Notes under the pieces: generated by a model | What the model saw: only the letters and a program-made list of their open reading frames with translations | The model's database searches: none | What the model was told of the DNA's origin: nothing | Shown: in pieces, positions 10,080 through 35,823 of the stretch | Numbering within the stretch: position 1 is the first letter of the stretch | Layout: each line of letters starts with the position of its first letter | Source of the DNA: a virus | Taxonomy: Duplodnaviria > Caudoviricetes | Virus record (IMG/VR): IMGVR_UViG_3300024254_000255 | Coordinates: 1 to 39,079 of that record | Length of the DNA: 39,079 nucleotides | Strand: one strand, 5' to 3' | Program-made: the position numbers and the translations under genes

Positions 10080-10102
10080 AATTACTTAGAAAAGGAGTTT
10101 CT

Positions 10103-15355: not shown

Positions 15356-15398
15356 TCTATCTCTCCTTAGATTATTTTTGACGTCATGTCATTTAAAG

Positions 15399-16157
15399 CT
15401 ATTTAAATCTTATGCCATTGTAAACTACCCAAATGCTCTCTGCATCTTGGAATTTCCATGCGCAAGTTCGGCTATCTAATTTTACACCTTGAGTTACATT
15501 ATCCATCAAAACGCCATTAATTGAACCGTTTAATGGAATAAAACAATCAACATTTAATAAATTTATGCCCCTGGCCTTATTTAAGTAAATTTGTGAGACA
15601 TTAGTGCCAGAAATAGTGGTATTGATGACCTGTGTCATTCTAATGCCTGCTGCAATTCCTTCGGTATTATCAGAATTTAATGCGCCATCTAAATAAATTC
15701 CGTGATTCCAGCTCGTATCAATTCCTGATTCACGACCAATTATAATGCCACTTATGGTAAATGTATGTCTATTATAAGAATTTATACTGCTATCAGTATC
15801 TTTATCGGCCTGAACATAAATAGCAATGCCATTATTAGTTCCTTTTCCTGCTAGAATAGTTAAGTCCTTAATAGAACCACCGGAATGGTCAGTCCCTCGC
15901 ATCCAATGAAAAAATGCGCCACCCTGAAAATCACGTATTAAAGTTGTCGAACCTATTCCATCACCCACAATGTTTAGAGCACATGGGAATGGATCTAAAG
16001 GTGTCATAAAATGATGCTCTCCATTCCCCACATAAATTGTGCGTGATATTGATGAAGAACACGCTTCTTTCGCATATTGATTAAATTTTAAACTAAAATC
16101 TTCTGCGGCTAATAATGGACAGGATATAATCCATAATAATGTTATAAATTTATACAT
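15399..16157 (-). CDS. Signal-peptide protein with pectin-lyase-like beta-helix
   Basis: MYKFITLLWIISCPLLA signal; TIYVGNG...LNIVGDG-GSTTL N-terminal motif; GSIKDLTI, NGIAIY rungs. Confidence 0.65.
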   Translation of the reverse strand: MYKFITLLWIISCPLLAAEDFSLKFNQYAKEACSSSISRTIYVGNGEHHFMTPLDPFPCALNIVGDGIGSTTLIRDFQGGAFFHWMRGTDHSGGSIKDLTILAGKGTNNGIAIYVQADKDTDSSINSYNRHTFTISGIIIGRESGIDTSWNHGIYLDGALNSDNTEGIAAGIRMTQVINTTISGTNVSQIYLNKARGINLLNVDCFIPLNGSINGVLMDNVTQGVKLDSRTCAWKFQDAESIWVVYNGIRFK

Positions 16158-16934
16158 TTAGGAGAATTCCCACACTACTATAAGTCCAGCTGTTCCTGGG
16201 CCTCCAGCCCTATTTGTGGCCGCGCCTGTTAGAGCACCTGAACCACCAGCACCATAATTAGAAGCCCCATTTCCTGTGGCTGCTACTGTTAGTGGCGCTC
16301 CTCCTCCTCCATAAAATGAATTACCTCCAAATCCAGATTGGCCTGCATTTGCTGATAATACAATTCCTACGCCTCCCGATTGGCCACCAATATTTACATC
16401 TCCATTTGTACCTGTACCGCCTACTCCACCCAATGTAAATAATCCTGTTGTGGATCCAGCTGTACCAATTCCTCCAGCGCCTCCAGTTGCCTGGAGTGAA
16501 GCACCAAATGTTGTTGTTCCGCCTGGACTTCCATTATTTGTTCCTGCAGTTCCTCCAGCACCCAACGCTCCTACTGTGTAGGTATAAGTTCCTGACGCTG
16601 AAGCTATATAAAGTCTTGCATAGCCTCCGCTTCCTCCGCCGCCTGCCGCAGATACAGATGCAGCTGTTGCAGTTACACCTCCTCCACCGCCTCCTCCACC
16701 AAGTACTTCAACTAAAATTGAAGTTACATTTGCAGGTTTCGTATAAGTAGCAGCAGATCCTGAAGTAAATACCTGGAAACTTCTAACACCACCAGTTGCC
16801 GTTAAATTGGTAGCCACACCAGATGTAGGCGTTCCAAGTAAAGGTGTTACAAAAGTTGGCGACGTAGTTCCGGCATGACTTCCAGTTCCAGACTGCCCCG
16901 ACAAAGTCACATTATGTTGATTATTAGTTGCCAT
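16158..16934 (-). CDS. Glycine-rich fibre/receptor-binding protein
   Basis: VFTSG...YTKPANV, VEVLGGGGGGGG, GAGGSG, GLIVVWEF. Confidence 0.8.
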   Translation of the reverse strand: MATNNQHNVTLSGQSGTGSHAGTTSPTFVTPLLGTPTSGVATNLTATGGVRSFQVFTSGSAATYTKPANVTSILVEVLGGGGGGGGVTATAASVSAAGGGGSGGYARLYIASASGTYTYTVGALGAGGTAGTNNGSPGGTTTFGASLQATGGAGGIGTAGSTTGLFTLGGVGGTGTNGDVNIGGQSGGVGIVLSANAGQSGFGGNSFYGGGGAPLTVAATGNGASNYGAGGSGALTGAATNRAGGPGTAGLIVVWEFS

Positions 16935-16945
16935 GATTTAATCCT

Positions 16946-17623
16946 TTAAGCGACTGTCAATCCAGTTGATAATACATAATCAACCGACCATGTAGTATTG
17001 GCTACAAGACCCGTAACTTTAACCGTATCATACTGATTAGCAGAGGTTAAGCTTCCGGCTGAGCTTGTCACTGATGAGCCAATTCTTATAGTAGTGGCAG
17101 TTCCTGCAGCTAATACCCAACCTCCAGCACCAAGGCCTTTGATTTCAATCTCATCACCAATAGCGAATGTTGTAGGTAGGGTCACAGTAACAGCTCCAGC
17201 ATTATTGGTTATATAACCATTATTTACTGCAGCTGATTGTGTTGTACCAGTCACCGTTGACCAGCTCATGCCTGAAGTAGATGAGGAGATCGTGATACTA
17301 GCCGCCCCATTGGTAATGGTAATCCCTGATCCAGCAGTTAACGTAGCAGCTGTAGGCGTTGCACCAGTTGATCCAATAATAAGCTGTCCATTGGACATGG
17401 TTCCAGACCAAACAGGCGTACCTGTACTTCCGGTTACTAATGTTGAACTATTAGTTCCTGCTACTAGTCCAGTTCCCACAGGTAAGCCTGTGCATGAGGT
17501 GAGCACTCCGGCTGTTGGAGTGCCTAAAGCTGGAGTTGTAAAGCTTGGCGACACATTTCCTGCAAAATTTCCTGTGCCTGAGGCGCCTGACAAGCCTAAG
17601 TCAATCTGATTTCTAGTTGCCAT
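16946..17623 (-). CDS. Fibre protein, paralogue A
   Basis: SPSFTTPALGTP, NGQLIIGSTGATP, AAVNNGYI, VTLP, GLGAGGW. Confidence 0.8.
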   Translation of the reverse strand: MATRNQIDLGLSGASGTGNFAGNVSPSFTTPALGTPTAGVLTSCTGLPVGTGLVAGTNSSTLVTGSTGTPVWSGTMSNGQLIIGSTGATPTAATLTAGSGITITNGAASITISSSTSGMSWSTVTGTTQSAAVNNGYITNNAGAVTVTLPTTFAIGDEIEIKGLGAGGWVLAAGTATTIRIGSSVTSSAGSLTSANQYDTVKVTGLVANTTWSVDYVLSTGLTVA

Positions 17624-17636
17624 TTCTAAAGTCCTT

Positions 17637-18503
17637 TTATGAAATTGTTAATCCTGCGGAGTTTGTAGTCCTTACTCTCCATGTTAAATTTGCGACAATA
17701 CATGTTACATATACATTGTCACTGATTGCCACGCTCGAAAGACTTCCAGCACTTGAGGTTGTAGCTGAACCAATTTTTATCGTTTGACCTGCATTAGCGG
17801 TTAATATCCAGCCACCTGCTCCTAGTCCTTCTACTGCGATTTCACTTCCAATTGCTGCAGTTGCTGGTAATGTAACAGTTACAGCTCCTGCATTATTTAC
17901 AATATAGCCATTATCAACAGCCGCTGATTGTGATGTGCCTGAAACTGTAGACCAAGTCATGCCGGATGCAGTTGAATTTATTGTAATGCTTGCAGCACCA
18001 TTAACAATTGAAATCCCTGTTCCTGCTGTTAAAGTAGATGCAGTTGGAGTTGCTCCAGTAGAACCAATTATTAATTGGCCGTTGGTCATTGTATTTGACC
18101 AAGCAGGAACGCCAGAAGAATTCGTAACTAATACTGAACTATGAGTTCCTAAAGATAAACCTGTGCCTACTGGTAATCCTGTACAATTAGTCAATATGCC
18201 ACTAATTGGAGTACCTAAAACTTCATTAGAAAGTGTTACAGAATCAAGAGTTCCTCCTGTTATAGCCACAGAGGAAGCATTTTGAACAGCCATGGTTCCA
18301 AGACCAAGATTTGCTCTAGCACCAGTCGCCGTTGTCGCTCCTGTTCCGCCATTTGCAATGGGTACAACTACACCAGGAGGTAAAGCACCTGTATAGGTAA
18401 AGCGTGTATTTAAGCCACCTCTTAATCCTACAATGATGTCATTTACTAAAAGCGTGCCTCCATCAACAAAGGTACTAAATTTCTGATCGGGTAGTAATGC
18501 CAT
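17637..18503 (-). CDS. Fibre protein, paralogue B (start MALLPDQ)
   Basis: GGTGATTATGARANLGLGTMAVQ fibre motif; C-terminal two-thirds paralogous to 16946-17623. Confidence 0.8.
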   Translation of the reverse strand: MALLPDQKFSTFVDGGTLLVNDIIVGLRGGLNTRFTYTGALPPGVVVPIANGGTGATTATGARANLGLGTMAVQNASSVAITGGTLDSVTLSNEVLGTPISGILTNCTGLPVGTGLSLGTHSSVLVTNSSGVPAWSNTMTNGQLIIGSTGATPTASTLTAGTGISIVNGAASITINSTASGMTWSTVSGTSQSAAVDNGYIVNNAGAVTVTLPATAAIGSEIAVEGLGAGGWILTANAGQTIKIGSATTSSAGSLSSVAISDNVYVTCIVANLTWRVRTTNSAGLTIS

Positions 18504-18530
18504 AATCCACACTCCTTGTGAGATTAATTT

Positions 18531-18920
18531 TTAACAAGCAGGTAAAGCGTAAAAGACTACACTTATATCTGTGGCAGCTACTGGAGCCATAAAATGAAGC
18601 ACATCTGCGGCTTTAACTTCTCTCGCATAATATTCACTTCCGATAATTAATTCAGATGTAGTAGCAGCAAAACTAGTTCCCGCTGGCACTGCGGCTGTTG
18701 CATTTAATGCGCACCAGACTTCTGCATTAGCCTTCACTTGGATAATTGCTAAAAATCTATTAACTTCATTTAACGGTGCACCAATAGCTCCGCTACTAGG
18801 AACTGTAAGAGTAGTGTCAGTTGTAATGGCTAACGCCGCACTGAATTTTAGATCAGAAAATGGCAATCCAAATCCATTGTAACCTGCAATGTCCTTTTGT
18901 AACTTGTATTGTGTAGTCAT
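18531..18920 (-). CDS. Putative small virion protein
   Basis: Beta-rich ORF within the tail cluster. Confidence 0.7.
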   Translation of the reverse strand: MTTQYKLQKDIAGYNGFGLPFSDLKFSAALAITTDTTLTVPSSGAIGAPLNEVNRFLAIIQVKANAEVWCALNATAAVPAGTSFAATTSELIIGSEYYAREVKAADVLHFMAPVAATDISVVFYALPAC

Positions 18921-18935
18921 AATTATCCTTAATTA

Positions 18936-21119
18936 TTAAACTATTCCTAGTCGTGCCTCTATAGTATAATGCGCAGCTATATAAGCGGATGAGTAATCAC
19001 CAACCGTTGCAAATGTGTAAAATTTTGTGTTGTTAGCTGCATCATAACTTGAAAATTTAGATCCTAAAGTCAATTGAGTCCAGTTTGCAGATGACGTATC
19101 CACTGGAGTCTGAGAAACTCCTGCATAAATTAATACAACTCTTACATTATTTATTGTGCCTGCTACAGGGTTGTATAATGTTACCGTAGGATTGGTAACA
19201 CGTTTAGCTGTACTAAATCTAATAGTGAAAGGTGATTCACCCACTAATGTATTGCCGCCACTTACTACAGTCTGTGATGGAAATATAGGATAAGTAGTTG
19301 TAGATGCTGTACCTGGTGCAATACCTGAATCATAACTATTCTCATAATAATATTGGCATTCTCTTAATACTTCATCAGGAGTTTGTGGCGCGGGTCTAGT
19401 AGGTATATCTCCAGGAATTAAAGATACAGAATTTACAACGACCACTGTAGATATTGCGACATAAGCAAATGTCACAATGATACAGAATTTATTAGTATCT
19501 GAAATTTCAGTCGGATCTGTTACTTCCCAGCCATTAAATCCATAATCATTATTGGTAGAATCTATTTGGTCATTAGTTACTACAGTAGATAAAGTACCTT
19601 TCCCAACTATATTTAAGTTTCCTCTAGGAATCTCAGTCCAATTTAGTCCTTGACCGGCTGTATTGTTTTTAGTGAAATTGCCATTGATATCTAAATTTCC
19701 AATTAAATTTCCTAATGTCGGAAAAACTGCAGCAGATGAACCGCGATATAAGGAAATCTGAAATGTAATTGCTCCTCCAGCTGAACCTCTATAGGCATTT
19801 AAATTTACAGATAATTTTGAACCCAGAATTTTTGAAGCTTCTGCACCACTTAAATATTGACAGATTAAAAAAGCATCAGGAACCGCCCCTGCTGTTGTAA
19901 ATTGTAATCCACCTGTAATGCTATTTCTTGTATATGCAATATTTGTAGCCCCACGCGCTGCTATAGTCTGATCCCATATGTAGGCACCTGCTCCAGACAA
20001 ATTACCAGTTTGACCAAGTTGTGCAGGATTTAATGGAAAATCCCATCCTGTTAACAGACTAGAAATGGGTTTAAAATTTATTTGTGATTGATAATAATGA
20101 AATAGATGATCAATTTGTCGGTATTGAGATTCTTGGTCATATACAATATCACTTACAACTGCCAATCCTGTAGGTGCAATCATCACACTTGTAATGGCTA
20201 TGTTTACTCCTACAGGCAAAACTAAATCAATGTCTATATAAGAATTTGGAAAAAATTGAAGACTATCTGAAATAGGAATATTTCCAGTTCCAGGGAATGC
20301 ATCATAATTTCCATTGCCGTTTAATATGCCAGCAACTATTAATTTATCAATAACTGTGCCATCTGATTGACTATAAACCATTGTTATTGTAGTACTCGTG
20401 CCACCAAATGTTTTTGCAACAAATGATGCTGCCAAATTACCTGAGCCCCATAAATTTGGTGAACCAAATATTCTTTGACGTAATCTTAAAGCACTTAACC
20501 CTGCCGAATTTATTTCTAAAATAGTCCCTGGATTAGTAATTATATTAATATCACCAACAGGAGTTATTTGATTGACTGTTACAGTTCCTATCCCAGGTGA
20601 TGTCACAACCAAATCCCAATTGGGAGCTATATTTACAGTTTTTGTTTCAGTATTAAAATTATATGTATAGGTTGAAACTGTTGTATCAAATAGAACTTCA
20701 GCAAATTGAGGATTGGAGATTTCATTTTCAAATGCACTTGATACGCCATTTTGACCAGACATTGGAATAAAAGGAACTGGATCACGAACAAATTGAGGAA
20801 CTAAACCGGAACTTTGTACTATGACTCGATAATAATCAACAGTAACTAAATCAGAACCATAAGGTAGAAAATAGGGGATTACAGGATTTCCTAATGAATC
20901 TTCAAATGTGCCGATTGAACTCAATATCATTGGATTTGGTAATTGAATATAGGTAAAATTTGGATCTGCACCAGTTATTTGATAAACAGGCTTCAATGTT
21001 CCAGGCTGTAAAGAACGTTCAAATGTGACTATTCCGCCAGATAATGGGGCACCTGTATCTTTATCTAGAAATACCGTCTCTAAACTAAAAGCGGGGATAA
21101 AATGTTGGTCTGTAGCCAT
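18936..21119 (-). CDS. Major tail fibre/tailspike-like protein
   Basis: N-terminal FLDKDTGAPLSGG..NPMILSS-G anchor; ELxxCQxYY-like motif (EVLRECQYYYE) near C-terminus. Confidence 0.75.
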   Translation of the reverse strand: MATDQHFIPAFSLETVFLDKDTGAPLSGGIVTFERSLQPGTLKPVYQITGADPNFTYIQLPNPMILSSIGTFEDSLGNPVIPYFLPYGSDLVTVDYYRVIVQSSGLVPQFVRDPVPFIPMSGQNGVSSAFENEISNPQFAEVLFDTTVSTYTYNFNTETKTVNIAPNWDLVVTSPGIGTVTVNQITPVGDINIITNPGTILEINSAGLSALRLRQRIFGSPNLWGSGNLAASFVAKTFGGTSTTITMVYSQSDGTVIDKLIVAGILNGNGNYDAFPGTGNIPISDSLQFFPNSYIDIDLVLPVGVNIAITSVMIAPTGLAVVSDIVYDQESQYRQIDHLFHYYQSQINFKPISSLLTGWDFPLNPAQLGQTGNLSGAGAYIWDQTIAARGATNIAYTRNSITGGLQFTTAGAVPDAFLICQYLSGAEASKILGSKLSVNLNAYRGSAGGAITFQISLYRGSSAAVFPTLGNLIGNLDINGNFTKNNTAGQGLNWTEIPRGNLNIVGKGTLSTVVTNDQIDSTNNDYGFNGWEVTDPTEISDTNKFCIIVTFAYVAISTVVVVNSVSLIPGDIPTRPAPQTPDEVLRECQYYYENSYDSGIAPGTASTTTYPIFPSQTVVSGGNTLVGESPFTIRFSTAKRVTNPTVTLYNPVAGTINNVRVVLIYAGVSQTPVDTSSANWTQLTLGSKFSSYDAANNTKFYTFATVGDYSSAYIAAHYTIEARLGIV

Positions 21120-21160
21120 TGCAAAATCCTTTTGCAGTTTTATATTTCTAAATTAAATTA

Positions 21161-21259
21161 TTACTCATCGTCACAACAATCACATGATGAATGACAATCA
21201 CACTTATTCAACCATAATACTAGATATATACAAAATGATAATACAAATGCATTCCACAT
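21161..21259 (-). CDS. 32-aa membrane peptide with Cys-rich tail (MWNAFVLSFCIYLVLWLNKCDCHSSCDCCDDE)
   Basis: Read manually; GGAG RBS and upstream TATAAT. Confidence 0.6.
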   Translation of the reverse strand: MWNAFVLSFCIYLVLWLNKCDCHSSCDCCDDE

Positions 21260-21333
21260 GTTATTCTCCAAATGAAATTTTTATTATACCTTATTTTGAT
21301 TAAAATAAAATCATTTTATTAAACCAAAGTTTA

Positions 21334-22626
21334 TCATTTGTGTAACATCCTACCAATCTCTTCTACACCTAGAGCAGTTCCAGCAATTTTACCAGCACTT
21401 TTTAAAAGACCCATATTTCTTTTATGTTTTAATGCTTTACCAAGCATCTTCTCAATTTCAGGATGAGCTTCAAAGAATTTCTTCATTTCTGTAGATTCTT
21501 CAGTTAATAATGTGATTGGATTTTTAGGTACTTTCTGACTCTTACCAAATACCTTAGCTAAAGCTGGATTAGAAAAATATGTTCCTTGCAAATCAGCATA
21601 ACCTTCTTTAGTTTGATTTAAAAGTTTAGCTAAATCTTTATGACCAGATTCTTTAAAATGTTCTTCTATTGAATTATTAATCTGTCTACGTGTGGATAAT
21701 GCTTCTTTACCAATCTTTCTTTCTGTCGTTAATTTATTAGATAAAGCTGTCTCCCCAATTTCCCTTAAATCTGCCTGTAAATCTCTAAGAGCATTATAGT
21801 CGCCATTCTTGGCTCGTATGATTAAATTTTTTGATTCTGGAGTTTTATCTAGAAATTTTTGAGCCTGACTTATTATATTTTTATCAATTGGTATATTACT
21901 AATTCCCCGTTTTTCAACTTCTTCTGCTACTGTTTCAAAAGCATTCCCAAGTTCTTTCTTGGCTGAATTAACTTTAGCCTGAGTTTCTCTTATAGCCATT
22001 TTTAAATCAGGATTCTTAGCTGCATTATAAATAGATTTAATACCTTTAGTTCCAGGAATTGCTAATGCTGCTATATCTGGCAATGCTCTAATGAGCTTAT
22101 CACCTCTCTCTGGCTTAACTTCAAGTCCCAAAATTTTTTCTAATCCAGTGTCTTCAGGAATATGAGGAATCAAATCACTTGTATTTAAGTTAGTTCCAGG
22201 AATAGGAATATCAATAGCTAATTTTTTCTTAAGCAAATATTTCAATAAATCATGTGGAGAGTTCGCTATAGTCTTGCCTACTTCTGCAGTTCCTGCGCCT
22301 AATTGACCTATATTATGAAAAATTGAGCTGACAGGATTTTCTTCAATATATTTTCCACTTTTTTCTAGATTAGATGGAATGTCTTTAATGAAACCACGTC
22401 CGGTCTTTAATGCATTGGATAAATTGTTCGCAACATCAGATGCTAATCCTTTAAATCCTGTCCCCTCGGGTTTAATAGATTGAATATTATTATATGGAGT
22501 TGGTTCTATTGTAGATTGATTTTCAGGCGGAAATTGTTTCTGTAATACAGATTCTATTTCTTCATGAGACATTTCATCAGGAAATTCACCAATTTCTCCA
22601 TTTGGTAATTTTACTCTAATAGCCAT
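21334..22626 (-). CDS. Putative DNA ejection protein (P22 gp16 position)
   Basis: VKLPNG-I-EFPD N-terminus, helical; synteny. Confidence 0.65.
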   Translation of the reverse strand: MAIRVKLPNGEIGEFPDEMSHEEIESVLQKQFPPENQSTIEPTPYNNIQSIKPEGTGFKGLASDVANNLSNALKTGRGFIKDIPSNLEKSGKYIEENPVSSIFHNIGQLGAGTAEVGKTIANSPHDLLKYLLKKKLAIDIPIPGTNLNTSDLIPHIPEDTGLEKILGLEVKPERGDKLIRALPDIAALAIPGTKGIKSIYNAAKNPDLKMAIRETQAKVNSAKKELGNAFETVAEEVEKRGISNIPIDKNIISQAQKFLDKTPESKNLIIRAKNGDYNALRDLQADLREIGETALSNKLTTERKIGKEALSTRRQINNSIEEHFKESGHKDLAKLLNQTKEGYADLQGTYFSNPALAKVFGKSQKVPKNPITLLTEESTEMKKFFEAHPEIEKMLGKALKHKRNMGLLKSAGKIAGTALGVEEIGRMLHK

Positions 22627-23762
22627 TATTCAAGCCTCCCTGTAGAAGGATTAAATATTTTAACACCTATTTCAGATTTTTTTTGCGCATTTGATCTTAA
22701 TCTTCCATAATCTTCCATGGTTCTATTAAATTCATTAGCGGCTTCTTCTAAATATTTAGTCATATATTTTTGCATTGCTATATATGTAGGACTATCTACT
22801 AAGCTTTCTAAAATCTTTAAATTTCCTAAAGATTTATCTTGAAGTTCTCTAATGGCTTCAATTCCTATATTTCCTCCAGCTACTTTCAATCTCAATGCTG
22901 CTAATTCAGGCTGAAGTGCTCTTGCTGCTAATACTTTACCTTGTTCTTCTGGATTTTCACCAGATAATGCATCAGCCATTTGCTCTAATGAATACCCATA
23001 TAATTTATTTTGATATTTGCCCATACCACCAATAATCTTATCTTCTAGATTTTTAATTTCATTTACAAATCCTGAACGCTTTTGAAGCTGCTTCACATTT
23101 TCTTCGCCCAGAGGATACATTGGTGTTAATTCTTCTAATAGAAAACCTTTACTATCGGCTATATCTCTTAATGATTGCCCACTTCTAAGCAACTTAAGTC
23201 CTTCAATTGGATCTATGCCCATTGCTGTAGTTAACCCAATAGCGCGTTTTTTTTCATTAACAGGTTGTTTATCAAAAGAGCTGCCTGATGTAATATCTTC
23301 ACTTCTTCCTGTCACTGCTTCAGTATGTCTTAATTGTGACTGTAAAACTTGATCGGCAAATGCTTTTATTTCATCTTGAGTTGCTTCAGGATGAGTAGCT
23401 ACAAAATTGGCAACCATACCATTAACTTTTGCACCACCTTTCCCTCCTGTACGTTGTAATTGCTTAAGTTGTTCTTCTTTTAATGCATCTGCAAGGCTAT
23501 ATTCTTTTGGTTGATGCTTAAGAGCTAAATCTTTTAAAGAATTCGCTAATGTTTTTTCCTGGTCGCTTAATGAATATTCTGTAGGTTTATGTTCCACTTC
23601 AAGCTTTTTAAGCTTATTAGATAATTCACGCTGTTGAGTTTCTTGTGCCATCTTAGCGGGTTCTTGCTCAATCTTATAACCTTGTAAGACATTTTCAAAT
23701 AAATTTTTCCAAGGGGAAGCAATAATTGGTGCTCTTGAGAAATCTGTGAAATTAATAGCCAT
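22626..23762 (-). CDS. Putative DNA ejection protein (P22 gp20 position)
   Basis: Q/K/E-rich helical; synteny. Confidence 0.65.
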   Translation of the reverse strand: MAINFTDFSRAPIIASPWKNLFENVLQGYKIEQEPAKMAQETQQRELSNKLKKLEVEHKPTEYSLSDQEKTLANSLKDLALKHQPKEYSLADALKEEQLKQLQRTGGKGGAKVNGMVANFVATHPEATQDEIKAFADQVLQSQLRHTEAVTGRSEDITSGSSFDKQPVNEKKRAIGLTTAMGIDPIEGLKLLRSGQSLRDIADSKGFLLEELTPMYPLGEENVKQLQKRSGFVNEIKNLEDKIIGGMGKYQNKLYGYSLEQMADALSGENPEEQGKVLAARALQPELAALRLKVAGGNIGIEAIRELQDKSLGNLKILESLVDSPTYIAMQKYMTKYLEEAANEFNRTMEDYGRLRSNAQKKSEIGVKIFNPSTGRLE

Positions 23763-23778
23763 TTAATGTTTCCTATTT

Positions 23779-24423
23779 TCAACCGAAAATGCTTGAGCCA
23801 ATTTTACCACCAGCTACTGCACCTGGAAGGCCTCCAAATAATGCTCCTGCGCCTACGCCTAATGCTTTACCTAAAGTTCCAAATATATCGTTTCGATTAG
23901 AATTTTGATTTTGAGCATTTTGGAATGCTAATCCACCTTGTTGATTCAATGCACCACCTAACAGATCGGCTAATGAACCTGATGCTTGGAATCCTTGATT
24001 AGCTATTCCTTGTTCGCCGCCTAATCCTATATCATATCGTCCTAAGACATTCTGAAGAAATTGCTGCATGTCCTTGGACAATAATCCTTGAGTGCCTTTA
24101 GCTTGATTCATTTGGTCAAGAGGAGTTCCAGCAATACCTCCTGCAGCTGCTGTGTTACCCATTCCACGCGTCAATTCTTCATTAGCGAATTTATATCCTT
24201 CTGAAGGCTTATATCCTTCCATCAATTTATTAATAAAGCCTACTGGATCTGCCAGTAACATATCATATTGACTCTGAGCCTTTTGACCTGCTGCTTGACC
24301 TTGATTGATAAAAGGATCGTAATATTGATGACCTACACCAGGAATTTGACTAAGATATTTATTAGCCTCTTCCATAGGATTATTTTTTTTGCCACCGCCA
24401 AATAAACTATCTAATATGCCCAT
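23779..24423 (-). CDS. Putative DNA ejection/pilot protein (P22 gp7 position)
   Basis: G/Q/A-rich, YDPFINQG, PSEGYKF, AAAGG. Confidence 0.7.
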   Translation of the reverse strand: MGILDSLFGGGKKNNPMEEANKYLSQIPGVGHQYYDPFINQGQAAGQKAQSQYDMLLADPVGFINKLMEGYKPSEGYKFANEELTRGMGNTAAAGGIAGTPLDQMNQAKGTQGLLSKDMQQFLQNVLGRYDIGLGGEQGIANQGFQASGSLADLLGGALNQQGGLAFQNAQNQNSNRNDIFGTLGKALGVGAGALFGGLPGAVAGGKIGSSIFG

Positions 24424-24447
24424 TTCATATCCTTATGAAATAACCCT

Positions 24448-26372: not shown

Positions 26373-26373
26373 A

Positions 26374-27078: not shown

Positions 27079-27087
27079 TTAAGCATC

Positions 27088-27903: not shown

Positions 27904-27923
27904 TTTAATATCCTTATAAAGTG

Positions 27924-27942
27924 GGGGAACCTCATGTTCCCC
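27924..27942 (-). terminator. Hairpin, likely the original coat-gene terminator
   Basis: GGGGAAC-N5-GTTCCCC. Confidence 0.55.
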
Positions 27943-27950
27943 TTCCTAAA

Positions 27951-28874
27951 TTACTTCTTTTCGTTCTTGTGGTGATCTGCGTGGTGCTTTTTACATAACC
28001 ATCTTACATTTAATGGTTTAGTGTAATCATCATGATGCGCCTCAACATTTAATTGCGTCTTGCATATTTCGCAAGGCCTTCGAATTAACTGACCTCTTTT
28101 AATAGCGTTGCTAGTTAAGCTTCTAACGTAAACTTTGACCATTTCATCAGGGTCTTTCCTACGTCTTTCATTGCTACGCTCATACATTTTTCGCTTAACA
28201 TCAGGGTGAGAATCAAGATAATTTTTTCTCACTTCCGATGCACAATCAACACAATAGCAATTGCTATAAGATGCGAATGGCTTTCCACATTGACAAGCCC
28301 CTGTTCTGTGCTTTAGGGTTCTGCCCGTATTTAAACGCCATTCACGATCAATTTGCCTATGACAACTATGGCAATATCCAAGCTTAGGATTTTCTTTAAT
28401 CTTATCACATCGATTACAAGTATCTTTGCGACCAGAACCCCATGGCTTTAATCCCAAATGCTCTCTGGTTAATGCAGTATCTAGTTTCCTTCTTTCTGAG
28501 CAACACTTCCGGCAATATCCACTGGATGCATGCTGTTCGTCTTTAATTTCACCACACTTACTGCATTTCAAGCTTCTTCCTAAACCATATTGAGGCTTTC
28601 CATCCTCGATTCGCCTTTGTTGCCTACGCAGTTTATTAGCCTCACTCCTGCATTTTTTGCATACGCTATCATTCATGTAATTAGGCTCTTTATTAGAGCC
28701 GCATGAATTGCAAATAGGGTTAGCATTAGAGCCAAAAAGGGGAATACCTTTAGCTTTCTTTTCAGCCCTCAACGCTCTCTTTCTGGTGTTTATGCAATAA
28801 CTACACCATGAGCTACCTAACATTTTTTCATTAACATCACATTTGCTACAACTAACACCACACTTTACAACCAT
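27951..28874 (-). CDS. Multi-zinc-finger protein with C-terminal HNH-like domain
   Basis: Five paired CxxC/CxC units then PCEIC...EAHHDDY-KPL-V-WLC--HH. Confidence 0.75.
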   Translation of the reverse strand: MVVKCGVSCSKCDVNEKMLGSSWCSYCINTRKRALRAEKKAKGIPLFGSNANPICNSCGSNKEPNYMNDSVCKKCRSEANKLRRQQRRIEDGKPQYGLGRSLKCSKCGEIKDEQHASSGYCRKCCSERRKLDTALTREHLGLKPWGSGRKDTCNRCDKIKENPKLGYCHSCHRQIDREWRLNTGRTLKHRTGACQCGKPFASYSNCYCVDCASEVRKNYLDSHPDVKRKMYERSNERRRKDPDEMVKVYVRSLTSNAIKRGQLIRRPCEICKTQLNVEAHHDDYTKPLNVRWLCKKHHADHHKNEKK

Positions 28875-28937
28875 TCGATTCTTCTATAATTAAATGTTGC
28901 ATTATATAGGAGAGCCAGATAAGATCCTAATTATATA

Positions 28938-30176
28938 TCATAGCGGAAAGATAATTGACATCGCGTACTCTGGGACGAGCTTCTTTCCCCATATCGCGTC
29001 GTGTATCATCCCTCTTTGGTTCTGGCCAAACAAAGAACCGTAATACATTCGGAGACTTACCGCAGTATCAGGGTCAATTTCATTACCTGTAGGAAATGGA
29101 ACTTCTTCAGGAAGCATTGGCATACCAAGGAATAAAGGATTACCAGCAGTAATCACGCCCGCTCTATGCGAAGGAAGAAAAGTCACTTGCATACCTGCAA
29201 CAATTGCAAAATTCAAGTTCTGATCATTACCTGCATTAGCTTGTAGAGGCGGAAATACGCTAACAGTAACGTTACCACCACTTGATGCTGAATCTGCTGT
29301 AACTCTGAATTGAACAGGATTACTAGATACTTTATGGCCAATAAATGTCAAATATCTAAGATTAGGTTGCCCTGCAACTCCATCATTGAATTGACCTTTA
29401 TCGTAAAGTTTAATTGCATTTGCATCAGTACCAGCACCAGAAAATACGATTTGGATTACTGCTCCATTTGCATCAAGCACTGTAGAGACAACAGTCAAAA
29501 CTGTACCAGCTTGACCAATAGTTCCTGATGTATGAACTGGAAGTAAGTTAGATACATAGAATTCAGCTCTATCAAAATTACCTACATCCCATGAATTGGC
29601 AATCTCATCATTACGTCTTGGTACGAATTGATTCAAACCAGTATTAACGATTGCAGATTGTGCAATATCACTTAGATAGAATTTGGTATTGTCTTTAGCA
29701 GCACCATAGTTTCTATACATGGCAAGAGCTGCAGCTAATTGACCATAAGAATTAATTTGCGTGATTCCATCACCAAAGAAGCGGTAAGGAGAGGTTACAC
29801 AGACTTCTGCAATATTAGATTCAATAGTTGCAGACATTTCCATTACTGCAGATTTACCGAATTTATCCATATAGTCTTCTACGTTGAAGATAAATTGTTG
29901 TGCAGTAAAGGCATAAGATACGTTGATAGCTTGGTCTACAGTTAAATTTTCTACCCTTTGATCTGCGGGTTGAAATGTAGCCACCAAACTATTTGCGGTT
30001 GTAAATCGTGGTGGTAAATCGAAAGTCACTGTATCACCAAGGTTGGCGGTCAGTTTTTCGAAATTCTTGAATTTAGTATTTGCTGTTGCTACGAAGCAGT
30101 TTAAGTTCTGTAGGTAAGCCAAATTTGACAACTGGTAGGTTTGTACCTGTTGTAAAATGTTATTTGGAACGGCCAT
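28938..30176 (-). CDS. Major capsid protein, P22 coat (gp5) family
   Basis: LGDTVTFDLPPRF, SNLLPVHTSG, SLRMY, DAIWG--L-PE; follows scaffold. Confidence 0.9.
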   Translation of the reverse strand: MAVPNNILQQVQTYQLSNLAYLQNLNCFVATANTKFKNFEKLTANLGDTVTFDLPPRFTTANSLVATFQPADQRVENLTVDQAINVSYAFTAQQFIFNVEDYMDKFGKSAVMEMSATIESNIAEVCVTSPYRFFGDGITQINSYGQLAAALAMYRNYGAAKDNTKFYLSDIAQSAIVNTGLNQFVPRRNDEIANSWDVGNFDRAEFYVSNLLPVHTSGTIGQAGTVLTVVSTVLDANGAVIQIVFSGAGTDANAIKLYDKGQFNDGVAGQPNLRYLTFIGHKVSSNPVQFRVTADSASSGGNVTVSVFPPLQANAGNDQNLNFAIVAGMQVTFLPSHRAGVITAGNPLFLGMPMLPEEVPFPTGNEIDPDTAVSLRMYYGSLFGQNQRGMIHDAIWGKKLVPEYAMSIIFPL

Positions 30177-30236
30177 GTCTTCTTCTCCAATAATATCCTT
30201 ATTAAGAGAACAGACATGACCAGTTTTGGTAGAACT

Positions 30237-31004
30237 TTAACCTCTTAGAAATGAGGCATTCTTAAAGTCCCGTACTGTTTTAGTACCATTGTCTGTTCCC
30301 ACTGGCGAAGGTTTCAGACGGCTTAAGGGGTCTTGTGCTTCTTGCAAGTTTGATTTAGCTTCCTGATTGGTCTTGATAGACTGACTCAATTTAGCTAATT
30401 CAGCTCTGGCCATATTAGGTGATCTCTCAACTAAGGTGGCTAGAGTGGCTAATTTAGACGGATTCTTTTGCAGCTCATAAATAATTGCTGCTGTGTTATC
30501 TGTCTGTGTAGCCAAATATACTAATTGCGGGAATGCAGCAGGATCAAAGCCTGAGGTGATAGCATCAAAGTCTTCATATAATTCTTTACCTTGAGCCAAT
30601 TTACCAAAGTACTGTTGAGCTACTTCATTCACTTCCTTTTCGAGCTGTGCTAGATGAGCTTGATCAGCTTGTTCTTGCTGCTTTTGTTGCACCATCTGCA
30701 TTACCTGTTGAAGTTGCTCTGGCGACATACCCTGGTTGCCTTGTTGCTGCATGATGGGTTGTTGCTGCGGCGTCTGAACTGGTTGTTGCGTTTGCTGCCC
30801 TTGAAGCTGCTCAATTTGCTGTTTAGCTGCGTCTAGTTGCTCTTGCATTTTCTGCTCTCCTTTGCGTTTAGCCTTTTTAATAAGCTCATTCACTTGGGAA
30901 GCAGGAAGCATTTTCTCGGGAGGTGCAGGTTCTACGTCTTTCAACGCATCCTCTTCACCCACATTAGTATCTTGCAATTCTTCTGCAATATCCTTTGCAT
31001 CCAT
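30237..31004 (-). CDS. Scaffolding protein (start MDAKDI)
   Basis: Coiled-coil, Q-rich, YEDFD, IIYEL-KNP, APxPl-like C-terminus; between portal and coat. Confidence 0.8.
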   Translation of the reverse strand: MDAKDIAEELQDTNVGEEDALKDVEPAPPEKMLPASQVNELIKKAKRKGEQKMQEQLDAAKQQIEQLQGQQTQQPVQTPQQQPIMQQQGNQGMSPEQLQQVMQMVQQKQQEQADQAHLAQLEKEVNEVAQQYFGKLAQGKELYEDFDAITSGFDPAAFPQLVYLATQTDNTAAIIYELQKNPSKLATLATLVERSPNMARAELAKLSQSIKTNQEAKSNLQEAQDPLSRLKPSPVGTDNGTKTVRDFKNASFLRG

Positions 31005-31221
31005 TTGAAACCTCACTGTTTCCGGTGTGACCGTGATCACCTACCATCCGTGGTAGTTCCGACTATTTATCCCGCATAGTTGCGTATATGGCCTAGCATC
31101 CATCCTGGCTAGTCAGGTACTTCTTTGCATTAGTATATCAACAAATAATCAAATTAGTACAGATAATAACTATTAGTTTAAATCCTGTCTACAATAAAAA
31201 CACAAATAGCTAAATTTGCAC

Positions 31222-31344
31222 TCATTGCAAACAACTACCTTTAACCATCTTCTTAACCATCTTTTTATCTTGTTTGACATCGTTGTATTCCTCCTTCATT
31301 TTCTTTTTTTTCTGATTCATGCCACCTTTGGGTTTATCTTTCAT
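31222..31344 (-). CDS. Small basic protein, 40 aa (MKDKPKGGMNQKKKKMKEEY...)
   Basis: Read manually; ATGA overlap with the upstream gene. Confidence 0.6.
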   Translation of the reverse strand: MKDKPKGGMNQKKKKMKEEYNDVKQDKKMVKKMVKGSCLQ

Positions 31345-31520
31345 TTTTTCATTTTCCTTAAAGTTTCTGCCAATCTGGCGCGTTTGCCTTCTATTCCTTT
31401 AGCTTTTGCAGCTTTAGCTAATTTCTTAGCAGGAATCTTTTTTCCCATTGGAACTCCAAGCTCCTTATGAAGAGCACCTGGATGTTTTATAGCTTTCTGA
31501 ATGAATTTTTTATCAGCCAT
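31341..31520 (-). CDS. Small basic protein, 59 aa (MADKKFIQKAIKHPGALHKELGVP...)
   Basis: Read manually; recurrent phage family with IQKAIKHPGAL and KRARLAETL. Confidence 0.8.
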   Translation of the reverse strand: MADKKFIQKAIKHPGALHKELGVPMGKKIPAKKLAKAAKAKGIEGKRARLAETLRKMKK

Positions 31521-31654
31521 TAATATCTCCCTTTATTTTTTACTGTTCTTTGTCCGCGCTTTGGAAGTTCCTTTGCTTCAGATTTTTTCTCTGATTTAAC
31601 TTTCATTTTCATGCTTGGATTACCTTTGGTTTTAACTTTAATTTCAAGTGGCAT
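31520..31654 (-). CDS. Small basic protein, 44 aa (MPLEIKVKTKGNP...LPKRGQRT...)
   Basis: Read manually; AGGAG RBS; TAATG overlap. Confidence 0.65.
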   Translation of the reverse strand: MPLEIKVKTKGNPSMKMKVKSEKKSEAKELPKRGQRTVKNKGRY

Positions 31655-31663
31655 TTATTTCTC

Positions 31664-31828
31664 CTAATTATTTTCTTCAATCGTTAATTGACGCTCTACT
31701 ATCAATTTAATATCATTTTTAGATAACAAAGGATTTTCCTCTATTATAGCTATTATAGTTCTATAAGCTGTCTTAATTCCTCTAAGGTAATCATCGGAAA
31801 TCTTTATTTCCTCAACTCCTGATATCAT
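31664..31828 (-). CDS. Hypothetical protein, 54 aa (start MISGVEE)
   Basis: Fills the operon between basic peptides. Confidence 0.5.
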   Translation of the reverse strand: MISGVEEIKISDDYLRGIKTAYRTIIAIIEENPLLSKNDIKLIVERQLTIEENN

Positions 31829-31970
31829 TTTTTTTCTTCCGTTTTTCACTAGCTTCACTATATGCAATTGCTACTGCTTGCTTTTGTGGTTTACCAGCTT
31901 CCATTTCGCGTTTCACATTTTCGCTAAAGCCTTTTTTAGTCTTTGCTTTCTGTCCCTTTACTAGTGGCAT
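31812..31970 (-). CDS. Small basic protein, 52 aa (MPLVKG...SENVKREMEAGKPQKQAVAIAY)
   Basis: Read manually; recurrent phage family with GKPQKQAVAIA. Confidence 0.8.
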   Translation of the reverse strand: MPLVKGQKAKTKKGFSENVKREMEAGKPQKQAVAIAYSEASEKRKKKNDIRS

Positions 31971-34116
31971 TTTTGGTCTCCATTGTTTGTTTTTTTAAAT
32001 CATGCTCTTTACCAGCTTGCGCCACATCATGATGATGCTTACTTACATCAATTGCCATATTAACAGCGGTTCTTGCGTTTTCAGCATCAACTGACTCTTG
32101 TTTAATAGCGACTTCAGCATCGGCTCCTTGTACTTGAGCCAATACTTTAATCATCTCAATATCTGCCAACTTGTTCTTTACAGCATCATCTGTAGCAATT
32201 TTAGTTAATTGAACTTGAGCATTTTGAGATGCTGCTTCGCGTTTTTGTTGTGTCTTGCCAACTTCGGCTTGTGCTTGCATCATTAATGCTTGTTTTGGAT
32301 CAATTTGTTGAGATGCTTGTTGCATTGCCATTTGTTCAGACTGTGCTTGTTTTTGTTCAATTTCTTTCATGTATTCGCCAGCAGCTTGCCTTAATCCTTC
32401 AATGCCTCTGATTTCAATGTTATCTAATAAGATACCTAAGCCTTTTGCATTCATAAATGCTGCAAAGGATTCTGATGTTTGCATGAGTTGGATTATTGTT
32501 TCTAGAGATATTTGTTTTTGTACAGCGAAGTTAACACCTGCTTCTACTTTGACTTCAAGACTCATTGGATCATAATCCATAAATGGATTTCCAATTTTAT
32601 TAATGACTTCATAAGAACGTTTGCCATCTGGTTCTACTATTGGGATACTTCTTGGTGTCACATAGTATTTGGGTATTAAATCCAATATAATCTGACACAC
32701 GCGGTTCAGTCCTTTCATAAATCCGACAGTGTAGGGCATAGCTGCTGCATTAGAATGCATAGCACCCTGCATAATGGCTACTCCTGATAGTTCGTTGTTC
32801 TGAATTCCTAGAGCCGCGTCATAGCTTCCTAAAATACCTTGCATCAAATTATCTGACATTTGAAATGTTTCACTAATTTGAGGTGGTATTGGTGTTCTTA
32901 CGATTTCACGTGGTGGGACTAAAGGTTGATTTGGATCGCCATCATTGTATGCGTTATAAAGTAAAGTTGCGGGTTTTTGTATATTAATATAAGCATCTAG
33001 ATAATCTTCAGGAATAGATTCCACGCTAGCTATAAATTTATGTTCTACGGTATTTTCAAGTTCATTTGCTAGCGATTGACCAGCATAATTCTTAAGCCTT
33101 TGGGCATCACGTACATTGTATATATAAGGACGCGTCATCTGCTCAGCTGTTGAATCATTATTATCTCTAAGAATGGCTGAGTTTCCATCAAAGAATATTA
33201 ATGGAAGCATTTTGTATGGGGTTTTCTGTACATCTACAAGATGAGCTCCTGAAAATGTATAGCGTGTGATGCTTTCAAATGTTGATTCACGAGTTTTACC
33301 TATCGGAATTGGTGGTTGTTCAATATGTCCGGCTTCTTCCCACATCCCTAATAGTTCTTCATAATTTTTAAGTGTTACAACACGGCCATTAGATAATTTA
33401 GTTATGCGCTCTTTTTTATATTCTTTTTTATCATATTGACACATTAACACAATATCTTTTTTTGCAGCTCTATAAGACCAATTAAATCCTGAAAAGCTTC
33501 TGGCATATTTCAATCCTTTTAATGCATCTGAACCATATATCTTCTCTACCTCTTCAGCTTCTTTGGGAAATAATTGAAAGCAAAAATTACCATCCCCTTT
33601 ATGCGATTTACGAGCCAGAGGATCGAAACCACATAGGGTTGGGTCAAATGCACGTTGGGTACATATTTTCTGATCCATGGACATTTCTGATATGTAATCC
33701 GTATAGCATTCGACAACAGAAAAACCGCCCACCAACAAATCAGTATATACATCATAGCTAAATCCATCATTATCTGAGTCCACTAATATTGATCTAAAAT
33801 GTGCTTCAAGGATAGAAAGCAGTCTTGGGTCGACATTATCAAATCCATCTTGAGCTCTTACTATAAATCCTGGTTCCATTCTTGAGAATTCACCTCTTAA
33901 TCTAGAGATGTATGCTTCAACCATATTGAATTCAATTTGAGGTCTTTGTAGGGATGCAAGAACTGCTATATCATCTTCAGTTAGCGTTGATTTATAAACA
34001 AAACGCATGAATTGATGGTATCTTTCATAATTTGGTCTGAAGTAGGTATAGGCTTGCTCTACAGATTGTTTAATCTGATCAAGCTTAGTTGTATGTCGTT
34101 TTGCTATCACTGCCAT
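31936..34116 (-). CDS. Portal protein, P22 family (start MAVIAK)
   Basis: RPQIEFN, FDPLARK, RDAQRLKNY, ELSGVAI, long Q/A coiled-coil barrel; follows TerL. Confidence 0.9.
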   Translation of the reverse strand: MAVIAKRHTTKLDQIKQSVEQAYTYFRPNYERYHQFMRFVYKSTLTEDDIAVLASLQRPQIEFNMVEAYISRLRGEFSRMEPGFIVRAQDGFDNVDPRLLSILEAHFRSILVDSDNDGFSYDVYTDLLVGGFSVVECYTDYISEMSMDQKICTQRAFDPTLCGFDPLARKSHKGDGNFCFQLFPKEAEEVEKIYGSDALKGLKYARSFSGFNWSYRAAKKDIVLMCQYDKKEYKKERITKLSNGRVVTLKNYEELLGMWEEAGHIEQPPIPIGKTRESTFESITRYTFSGAHLVDVQKTPYKMLPLIFFDGNSAILRDNNDSTAEQMTRPYIYNVRDAQRLKNYAGQSLANELENTVEHKFIASVESIPEDYLDAYINIQKPATLLYNAYNDGDPNQPLVPPREIVRTPIPPQISETFQMSDNLMQGILGSYDAALGIQNNELSGVAIMQGAMHSNAAAMPYTVGFMKGLNRVCQIILDLIPKYYVTPRSIPIVEPDGKRSYEVINKIGNPFMDYDPMSLEVKVEAGVNFAVQKQISLETIIQLMQTSESFAAFMNAKGLGILLDNIEIRGIEGLRQAAGEYMKEIEQKQAQSEQMAMQQASQQIDPKQALMMQAQAEVGKTQQKREAASQNAQVQLTKIATDDAVKNKLADIEMIKVLAQVQGADAEVAIKQESVDAENARTAVNMAIDVSKHHHDVAQAGKEHDLKKQTMETKNATSKGTESKD

Positions 34117-34118
34117 AA

Positions 34119-35675
34119 TCAAATCCTTTTGGTATAAGCACGTTGCTTTAATTCAATAACATTGTTATGTCTATTAAGAGCAGCAATTGTTGTTTGTCTT
34201 GAAGTATTATTTTTTGATGTAAATATAGATAAATTTTTATCTATTAGAGCTATTCGCACTGCATCTGAACAAGTATCTGCTATATCATCATGGGCATGAG
34301 AATCATTATTTGTAATTTTTTTCATGTGATTCACACACATTTCAGTGTGAACACCATGTAATGGTAAAGAGACTTGCTTGCTAGCTATATAAGGCTGTAT
34401 ATCAATGAATCTTTGTGATTTGCTTCCAGATTTACGCGTTCTTTCAATTTCACGAACTTTTAAACCTCTCATATTATTTAATATAGAAATGAGAGTGACT
34501 CCGGTGGATTTTTTTTCTATATAAGCAACTAGAGGAGGATTGGTGTGACGTGCGCAATCTTGCCAGAAATCTAAAAATTCATTTTCAAGATGTTTTGGTT
34601 CAACACGAATTTCACGGCAAGCTAGCCAATGAAGCCCAATTATTCCAGTTTTACGTCCTTGTGTTTCTATGTTGTACATTCCCCAAAATGAAAATACTGT
34701 GGCATCATTTCTTAAATCTTCTGTCTCAGCTGTATCTGCTGTTATGAATGTAATATAGAAATTGGGTTCTACACTTAATAAAGGAAAATCTTCAGGCATA
34801 AATAGACCACCACCTGCTGGTTGGGGATCTTGTTGATGTTGCGCTGCAAATACGTATCTGTCTTTTTCCTGACGAATTTTCAACATATCTAAGGGGAAAG
34901 CTTCGGGATAAAGTGCATTACCTGCATCATCTAATGATTTCAGTATTACTTTATCCCAGTCATAGCCATCCTCACCTGCAAGGAAGTAGGCAGGCAAGTC
35001 TTGTTCATGTAATCGTTGTCCTATGAAAACTATAGGAACATTGATGCCACGAGGTCTTTGTTGGATTGTTTCACGGAAGTTGGTAATTACACCTTCACGG
35101 ATTAAATCGGAATGGACTTCATCTGGTTTATGTGAATCATCGATGACGACCGCACCTGAGAATCTATCAAGCCCTGGTAATCCAGCATTACGCCCTGTGA
35201 TTGAGCCTGCTGAGCCAAACGCTGAAACTGTTCCACCAGCTGTTGTGGTAAAAGAGTCTTTAGCTTGTGAGTCATCTCTGAGGTATACATCAAAAAGAAC
35301 CTTATATTGTGATAGTGACATTATTCGCTTTACCACATCCGTGTGGGTAGCTGCTAAAGTTTTTGAGTAGGATATATATAAAAAATTACTGTCAGGCCAC
35401 TTAGCTAGACACCAAGCAATCCAGAAACTTACCATCACCGATTTGCCGTGGCCTGGAGGCACATTAACTAAAAGCCTGAGAGCTTGAAGATTTGTACACT
35501 TAGTTAAGGCACGGCAAATTGTAATGAAATGACTTTCCCGACTCACAGGACATGAAATGATAAACTCACGTCCTGTAAGGATAGGAAAAAATGCTTGTAT
35601 GAAGAGTAGTAAGCTACCCTTCAACTTGGCCGCTATTTCTGCGTTTTCAAGTTTTAGCTGTAGAGCCTTGTCCAT
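34119..35675 (-). CDS. terL: Terminase large subunit
   Basis: NVPPGHGKS Walker A, VVIDD Walker B, QRLHEQDL, QQDP-P-GG, ADTA, HDDIAD nuclease motif. Confidence 0.95.
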   Translation of the reverse strand: MDKALQLKLENAEIAAKLKGSLLLFIQAFFPILTGREFIISCPVSRESHFITICRALTKCTNLQALRLLVNVPPGHGKSVMVSFWIAWCLAKWPDSNFLYISYSKTLAATHTDVVKRIMSLSQYKVLFDVYLRDDSQAKDSFTTTAGGTVSAFGSAGSITGRNAGLPGLDRFSGAVVIDDSHKPDEVHSDLIREGVITNFRETIQQRPRGINVPIVFIGQRLHEQDLPAYFLAGEDGYDWDKVILKSLDDAGNALYPEAFPLDMLKIRQEKDRYVFAAQHQQDPQPAGGGLFMPEDFPLLSVEPNFYITFITADTAETEDLRNDATVFSFWGMYNIETQGRKTGIIGLHWLACREIRVEPKHLENEFLDFWQDCARHTNPPLVAYIEKKSTGVTLISILNNMRGLKVREIERTRKSGSKSQRFIDIQPYIASKQVSLPLHGVHTEMCVNHMKKITNNDSHAHDDIADTCSDAVRIALIDKNLSIFTSKNNTSRQTTIAALNRHNNVIELKQRAYTKRI

Positions 35676-35823
35676 AAAGGGGCAATCCTTTGCCTAAGTT
35701 GCGTCCTGCAAACCTCATGGATAAAATAACATAGATTAGAGCAAAATCACTATAGATAGTATGAAAATTTATTTAAATCACTATATATAGTATTAATTTA
35801 GATAAGTATTAACTCAATTAAAG

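Follow-up and report, generated by a model that had tools for sequence, protein, structure and literature searches.

Introduction

In Legionella, repression by the bacterial protein CsrA is relieved by RsmY and RsmZ. A review describes CsrA sites as ANGGAN loops on stems of mostly four or fewer pairs, with bridging of two sites over 10–63 nt and an optimum above 18 nt (PMC7652899). The fleQ and lqsR genes of Legionella pneumophila contain A(N)GGA loops to which CsrA binds (PMC5338858); host-encoded csrA loci and flagellin are the subject of a further study (bioRxiv 2025.07.22.666180). The part that CsrA plays in the phage cycle was, according to one study, previously untested; in that study, knockdown of a phage csrA led to smaller plaques (PMC11879866). 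Legionella phages have been isolated only recently, and the trigger that activates LME-1 is undefined (PMC12407071). The known cases are CsrA targets on host mRNAs and phage csrA genes of putative function. Here we analyze hairpins with A(N)GGA loops at the gene starts of a viral contig of 39,079 nucleotides (IMG/VR record IMGVR_UViG_3300024254_000255), referred to at its full length as the window.

The window is a 39-kb soil phage contig with a 69-base terminal overlap. An earlier note on its sequence had interpreted the hairpins as operators that place morphogenesis under host CsrA, so that virions are made only when the host changes phase. We find that the hairpin feature is real, common to a phage family and not generic to phages. 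Judged from the loops, their positions and their conservation, host CsrA probably represses translation at these hairpins, which would amount to a titratable delay.

Results

Hairpins with A(N)GGA loops exceed chance

All 16 stem-loops described in the earlier note are present in the window, 15 on the minus strand and that of recE on the plus strand (Table 1). The hairpins have the features of CsrA operators: they are short, present GGA in a loop of the ANGGAN or AGGAN type and lie over or near the Shine-Dalgarno (SD) sequence or the start codon. Chance formation was evaluated at curated start sites of the window with an A(N)GGA core, requiring at least three Watson-Crick pairs outside the loop. 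Among the late genes with such a site, 10/18 carry a stem, whereas 0.85 are expected when the flanks are shuffled with the ANGGAN core kept; none of 200,000 simulations reached the observed count. When start sites were taken by a uniform automatic rule and left flanks were swapped between genes, which preserves position bias, 2.8 stems were expected and 14 were observed at 30 sites (9 against 0.9 for stems of at least 4 bp). The claim that the stems exceed SD-preserving chance is therefore borne out for the late genes, and the other genes of the window are enriched as well (7/23 against 1.46 in the flank shuffle, P=2e-4).

The flank swap gave a similar result in relatives of the phage. Stems are found at 103 of 376 sites in 14 close genomes, compared with 14.8 expected, and every genome exceeds its own null. 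In nine far-clade genomes the count is 38/193 against 9.5, with three genomes not above their null. Genes of the L. maceachernii host show a smaller excess (14/110 against 4.0); the window differs from them with P=1.4e-4 for stems of 3 bp and P=4.5e-5 for stems of 4 bp. Counts were 16/398 against 10.7 expected in 75 other viral loci that bear csrA, and 3/139 against 4.7 in six unrelated phages (P22, VvAW1, BA3, HTVC010P, 80alpha and HP1); by the rule used for these six phages the window has 15/40. In a distant prophage (G216), which belongs to one of three Legionellales genomes with a related capsid gene, stems are present at seven of 26 sites, compared with none of 12 in the flanking DNA.

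Across the 562 orthologous leaders of a loop control, at least 4 bp closed 77 of 705 hexaloops that have GGA at positions 3–5, compared with 146 of 18,403 for all other cores pooled; the cores ranking next were ACG (16/153) and TGA (17/343). Position 1 of the loop is A in 35 of 36 distinct hairpins and position 6 is U in 23.

Chance stems in AT-rich leaders might be suspected from the low GC content of the window (~0.35) and from several stems that consist entirely of A-U pairs. Nulls that preserve composition and position, AT-rich control phages and covariation all reject this explanation for the set, and we regard it as extremely improbable. Taken singly, the portal, 38876 and orf73 hairpins may be chance.

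Marked virion genes start apart from their upstream neighbors

Records of 26 relatives, whole or partial, and the capsid-centered loci supplied the orthologous leaders; for close-clade counts, far-clade rows and starts more than six codons off were set aside. Counting stems of at least 4 bp, with G-U pairs allowed and the site within 55 nt, we find hairpins in 64/102 head and packaging leaders (6.0 expected), 71/231 tail leaders (17.8), 12/42 recombination leaders (4.3) and 9/32 leaders of orf121 and orf91 (3.1). Replication and maintenance leaders (2/94 against 4.3) and those of lysis and other genes (2/42 against 2.1) show no such excess. If a gene is scored as marked when at least 50% of its orthologues carry a stem, eight of 15 virion genes, two of three recombination genes and none of six early genes are marked.

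These counts modify two claims of the earlier note. Hairpins on the ribosome-binding sites of most virion genes are found by orthologue count, at 8/15, with the qualification that the coat hairpin lies off the SD. Hairpins at virion and packaging genes are also seen, but not exclusively: because recE, recT and in part ssb carry hairpins, the set is not confined to morphogenesis. The hairpin at 38876–38891 lies about 50 nt from the next start. The early ocr and resolvase sites do lack such stems, with a 1-bp stem only at ocr and no GGA at the resolvase gene.

Spacing separates the marked from the unmarked virion genes. All eight genes that start at least 24 nt after the upstream gene are marked, versus none of the seven that start 16 nt or less after it. 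The split is consistent with gating wherever ribosomes enter independently.

GGA loops away from the SD sequence

Since GGA is needed at SD sites anyway, sites off the SD are the telling cases; only there, and not where the SD is the sole site, can binding by CsrA be told apart from binding by the ribosome. In the coat leader, the hairpin GGA is located 19 nt before the AUG, and the true SD is a GGAG 9 nt before the AUG. The long coat stem has a predicted mean energy of -27 kcal/mol in 32 relatives; its loop reads AAGGAY or AUGGAY. In the predicted folds of these 32 close relatives the AUG is paired in 32/32 and the apical GGA is present in 31/32; the corresponding far-clade values are 9/13 and 1/13. 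The second case is a hairpin in the scaffold leader, which reads CACGGAUG in ten and CACGGACG in six of 22 sequences. GGA is kept in 20 of the 22, 99% of cells are paired, and double changes occur at four of the five pairs.

In relatives, stems vary while the GGA loop stays, as at this scaffold hairpin. Because the stem register differs between loops of 5 and 6 nt, pairs were counted from the loop outward, which gave compensatory changes at orf727, coat, orf434 and recT. Among the sequencing runs listed as holders there was no RNA run; contigs of four other soil sequencing runs had patchy coverage and added no stem variants. The terL leader has twin hairpins, and the spacing between them is 18 nt in 18 of the 21 sequences. 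In a survey of second sites, the coat leader combines the apical loop with the SD GGA, and most tail genes have a single site.

The two conserved off-SD sites, often ACGGA or AUGGA, argue for a protein that reads the loops, and such a reader is likely. Weak stems might instead set initiation rates and virion protein ratios, or display the SD in a loop, with no protein involved. Most loops are indeed the SD, the long coat stem appears older than its GGA loop, and the marked genes are those that initiate independently. This explanation does not account for the two GGA loops that lie 19 and 45 nt upstream and have U or C as N, or for the absence of hairpins from the six unrelated phages and from the replication genes of the family itself; we consider it improbable. 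In the Legionella-linked clade, GGA loops seem to be additions to structures that already existed.

A reader could also be encoded by the phage, with the scaffolding protein or the product of a small open reading frame (ORF) acting as a repressor, RegA-like or autoregulatory, that recognizes ANG(G)AY loops. Loops of the AUGAU and AAGAU type at terL and an AUGAU hairpin at 9506–9518 would be consistent with this, the window has many small ORFs without a family match, and the N-terminus of the P22 scaffolding protein has been implicated in translational autoregulation (bioRxiv 2022.12.13.520362). The dominant loop, however, is the exact CsrA consensus, a six-frame search of the window found no CsrA-like ORF, and the motif is present in host genes too, at a lower rate. 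A phage-encoded reader is thereby rather unlikely, if slightly less so than the absence of any reader, and host CsrA is the candidate that we favor.

Predicted pseudoknots in the scaffold leader

The 105 nt before the scaffold gene (31013–31117, minus strand) are predicted to form three tandem H-type pseudoknots around the GGA hairpin. Across 22 sequences, 97% of cells pair and 13 of 29 pairs change on both sides. None of 500 shuffles reaches the observed values and all slid controls are far lower; the fold was derived from the same 22 sequences, so the test is biased in its favor over the slid controls. A model without the pseudoknot stems detects the leader at the equivalent position of far-clade loci, with E values from 7e-5 to 0.05, and gives no match in P22, VvAW1 or BA3. 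Read by eye, far-clade leaders keep the three pseudoknots with changed pairs, the first stem of pseudoknot 3 being reversed, and their middle hairpin is mostly without GGA. A search of Rfam gave no match to the leader: tRNA-Asn alone reached the gathering score, and there was one chance snoRNA match (E=1.5).

Scaffold leaders also hold GGA motifs off the SD, 2–7 per 153 nt in 21 leaders. Such a cluster would suit a sponge, in which late mRNA soaks up host CsrA and pushes the host to a motile, exit-ready state, repression of the phage being incidental. Most sites lie exactly on SDs, where binding costs translation, and a sponge as the main function is quite improbable. For a stand-alone multi-hairpin small RNA, there was no Rfam match and no cluster of strong hairpins outside gene starts in the window.

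Phage, relatives and host

By its gene set, the phage is a P22-like podophage. The window contains genes for terminase, portal, coat, Hc3, ejection, tail-fibre, endolysin, RecE, RecT, single-stranded DNA-binding protein (SSB) and DnaB, as well as a Cro-like helix-turn-helix (HTH) protein, a small serine recombinase and tRNA-Asn. PHROG matches place portal, coat, Hc3 head closure and ejection genes in the P22-type order, and one source names the coat protein of a relative 'P22 phage major capsid protein family'. In GenBank phages the portal relatives all fall below 60% identity, and the 25 matches listed are at 21–25%. No capsid relatives were found among plasmids. Side observations in the window are an ocr-like DNA mimic (weak match; 5274–5645, plus strand), a DUF1003 protein (684–1040, minus strand) and a tRNA-Asn(GTT) upstream of terL (36006–36081, minus strand).

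The coat protein, which has ~3,000 relatives among the candidates scored, is 88% identical to an L. maceachernii prophage protein; the closest relative of the phage to carry a name is part of a Legionella genome. Among Legionellales, 203 of 206 genomes were scored and three hold a related coat gene, with identities of 88%, 55% and 53–55%. All three encode CsrA, in agreement with the Legionella-type, CsrA-bearing host of the earlier proposal. In G216 the phage genes are embedded in a 3.3-Mb contig. We infer a Legionellales host for the window. Three candidate host genomes were set aside: G025 (labeled Acidoferrales), whose portal gene is joined to 54%-GC DNA without a terL match and which looks chimeric; the metagenome-assembled genome (MAG) G024, with a phage-sized contig of 41 kb; and the MAG G026, with a far-clade contig of 28 kb.

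The earlier note had described the phage as lacking both a CI repressor and a csrA gene of its own. In the window there is no match to an HTH_3 (CI-type) repressor, a tyrosine integrase or an antiterminator, and the six-frame search for csrA gave none, so this part stands; the presence of a Cro-like gene and of csrA in a relative qualifies it. That relative (G004), the only one of 19 virus records with a phage-borne csrA, encodes it among the early genes (L089 14527–14679) with residues L4 and R44. Its gene has an SD and ATA at the start position, and the phage keeps the hairpins.

Other features of the window

On the strand opposite the cro-rep genes, twin hairpins occur at 9482–9497 and 9506–9518 (plus strand). 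The first has an AAGGAU loop near the SELEX consensus, and the second an AUGAU loop. A GGA hairpin after cro is present there in three of four testable relatives, and the pair is possibly part of an antisense RNA. About four short direct repeats of the GCCATGAT type lie at the start of the rep gene (9346–9405), which makes that start ambiguous.

An adjacent pair of IS66 TnpA-like (weak, below the cut-off) and TnpB-like genes is located at 36254–37248 (minus strand) and is kept in close relatives, mostly just upstream of terL. No IS66 transposase was matched in any of the five records tested; the pair is possibly domesticated.

In the L. maceachernii record (G002), a rep-like ORF at the prophage edge (L112 12668–13438) includes a palindrome whose arms are 10 bp and whose center is 4 bp long. 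The arrangement resembles LME-1, in which repO is split on integration; the dif comparison draws on bioRxiv 2021.09.12.459815. No such LME-1-like dif palindrome is present in the window, where the best match to the query, taken from the L. maceachernii record and not from the published dif sequence, has five mismatches. The orf121 gene, which the earlier note had labeled terS, gave no family match.

Table 1. Positions in the window of the hairpins, leader elements and genes discussed
Feature	Position	Strand	Remarks
terL SD hairpin	35681..35694	-	4-bp stem, AAGGAU loop; kept in 21/21 close relatives, one compensatory change
terL upstream hairpin	35699..35711	-	18 nt from SD site; loop ANGAY; GGA in 9/21
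Portal SD hairpin	34120..34131	-	3 bp; overlaps terL stop; weakly conserved, 10/27 relatives
Scaffold-leader hairpin	31041..31056	-	Not in the earlier note; non-SD ACGGAU hexaloop, ~45 nt before scaffold AUG
Coat long stem	30168..30225	-	A[A/U]GGAU loop cap at 30191-30204; predicted to bury coat SD and AUG
orf271 SD hairpin	27905..27920	-	2 perfect pairs here; at least 3 bp in 17/29 relatives
DNA-ejection (pilot) gene SD hairpin	24423..24440	-	18/21 relatives
orf727 SD hairpin	21120..21136	-	19/20 relatives; several pair types at each of bp1-bp4
orf129 SD hairpin	18919..18936	-	6/18 relatives
Tail-fibre orf291 SD hairpin	18508..18520	-	13/16 relatives
orf225 SD hairpin	17627..17639	-	3/3 relatives
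Tail-fibre assembly gene SD hairpin	16938..16949	-	3 bp
orf434 SD hairpin	15359..15372	-	12/15 relatives
recE (YqaJ-type) SD hairpin	10087..10103	+	11/14 relatives; different stem round GGA loop in most
recT SD hairpin	10930..10941	+	Not in the earlier note; AGGGAU loop; 11/13 relatives
orf121 hairpin	4831..4846	-	6/16 relatives
orf91 hairpin	5116..5129	-	8/16 relatives
orf73 hairpin	1512..1524	-	Seen in window sequence; too few orthologues for a conservation count
orf116 (IS66 TnpB-like) SD hairpin	36607..36617	-	3 bp; 10/14 relatives
Hairpin ~50 nt upstream of orf120	38876..38891	-	Seen in window sequence
Scaffold leader pseudoknot 1 (predicted)	31093..31117	-	Connecting loop holds GGA in 17/22
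Scaffold leader pseudoknot 2 (predicted)	31062..31084	-	Covariation; far-clade versions seen
Scaffold leader pseudoknot 3 (predicted)	31013..31033	-	Pairs with part of scaffold SD; invariant in close clade
Possible extended -10 promoter element before scaffold leader	31132..31140	-	TGnTAYACT in 13/21 relatives; inferred
Likely scaffolding protein gene	30237..31004	-	Position between portal and coat; no family match
Major capsid protein	28938..30176	-	88% identical to L. maceachernii prophage protein

Discussion

We propose that the host CsrA dimer uses as its operators the A(N)GGA(N)-loop hairpins found at separate ribosome entries of packaging, virion and recombination genes. CsrA would keep initiation low until its free level falls, and it could do so by masking the loop at the SD, by linking paired sites (as at terL) or by holding the long coat stem closed; closely spaced downstream genes would inherit control through translational coupling. 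In such a threshold circuit, rising phage mRNA would titrate CsrA, and particle proteins would be released late and together. Host Rsm small RNAs could shift the threshold, so that the state of the host would influence output without being the sole switch.

Several observations weigh against this proposal. Most hairpin sites double as SDs. Folded in isolation, six hairpins of the 16, those of portal, coat (by itself), orf225, tail-fibre assembly, orf91 and 38876, reach only 0 to -0.3 kcal/mol. Conservation is uneven, the portal and orf129 stems being retained in a minority of relatives (Table 1). At terL, the upstream loop is without GGA in 12 of 21 sequences (AUGAU in ten, AAGAU in two) with the stem retained; the terL pairing is outscored on covariation by one slid control, in a count that took in the upstream helix only in part, two of eight pairs having fallen in gap columns. 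RNAalifold on MAFFT alignments of the coat and orf727 leaders gave no consensus structure. The far-clade coat stem and scaffold hairpin are present mostly without GGA, so those structures have a role independent of CsrA. Counted per gene, the difference between virion and early genes has a P of only 0.046, orthologous leaders are not independent of one another, and coding sequence constraint may be the cause of stem absence in closely spaced genes. The comparison of the G216 prophage with its flank gives P=0.07, another relative (G072) has stems at none of seven sites, and VvAW1 encodes csrA yet has 0/24 hairpin starts. Finally, the three genomes set aside above, which hold relatives under labels other than Legionellales, give no CsrA match; for the reasons given there we assign this little weight.

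Titration of CsrA by phage mRNA as it accumulates accounts for the same anatomy as the phase switch of the earlier note. In a strict host-phase gate, a special case of the proposal above, CsrA would silence the phage until Rsm RNAs and proteolysis remove it at the transmissive switch. The lack of CI-type, integrase and antiterminator matches in the window fits such a gate, as do the unmarked replication genes, a possible host-type extended -10 element before the scaffold leader (Table 1) and the drop of CsrA level in the transmissive phase of L. pneumophila (PMC6853998). Against it, the lysis genes are unmarked, the csrA of G004 would counter sensing of the host CsrA level, and abundant late mRNA could titrate CsrA whatever the phase. 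We judge the strict gate unsupported and unlikely. It is equally doubtful that a widespread P22-like Legionellales family without CI uses CsrA as its late-gene repressor, gating each independent virion entry and the recombination genes in such a way that phage DNA persists in amoeba-replicating cells and particles form only in a transmissive host. Repression by host CsrA as a delay that phage mRNA can titrate is the version that we retain.

If this is true, phage timing would gain a new layer, with a lytic programme organized as a CsrA regulon, and virion output would be tied directly to host physiology. The parts are textbook; in the literature searched, which lay mostly outside subscription journals, there was neither a phage lytic regulon built from CsrA sites nor a report of such sites at the virion genes of phages. 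The present case contributes hosts whose Csr system is well studied, covarying sites off the SD and a rule for entry points. Given the undefined trigger of LME-1, this Legionella phage family offers a concrete lead (PMC12407071).

The leader of T4 gene 32 carries a pseudoknot. It resembles the pseudoknots predicted before the scaffold gene, which are likewise small with a one-base first loop, and autoregulation by the P22 scaffolding protein is a parallel in that a structured leader before a phage gene could be a translational operator. Unlike these leaders, the scaffold leader has three tandem pseudoknots together with a GGA hairpin. LME-1 is likewise a Legionella podophage, with T7-like morphology in place of the P22-like family indicated here by gene set, and 'CsrA' is absent from the main text describing it (PMC12407071). 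Phages with CsrA homologues (PTXU04 gp28, PMC11879866; VvAW1 gp26) also make use of Csr, and G004 carries such a gene; the window itself is without csrA, and the available text of PMC11879866 names no targets. The L. pneumophila CsrA regulon shares A(N)GGA loops in 5' regions and the host order, with host genes as its targets and the word 'phage' absent from the main text (PMC5338858). Operators of CsrA, RsmA and RsmE, such as those of hcnA and glgC, and the SELEX consensus RUACARGGAUGU are a further likeness: a short stem closes an ANGGAN or AGGAN loop that covers the SD or lies near it. Twin sites at a bridging distance are found at terL, where the spacing of 18 nt is within the 10–63 nt range and at about the stated optimum, although the second loop often lacks GGA (PMC7652899). 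The phage sites differ from these in being candidates identified from sequence that lie on lytic mRNAs, where they occupy 27–47% of A(N)GGA starts, compared with 13% in host genes.

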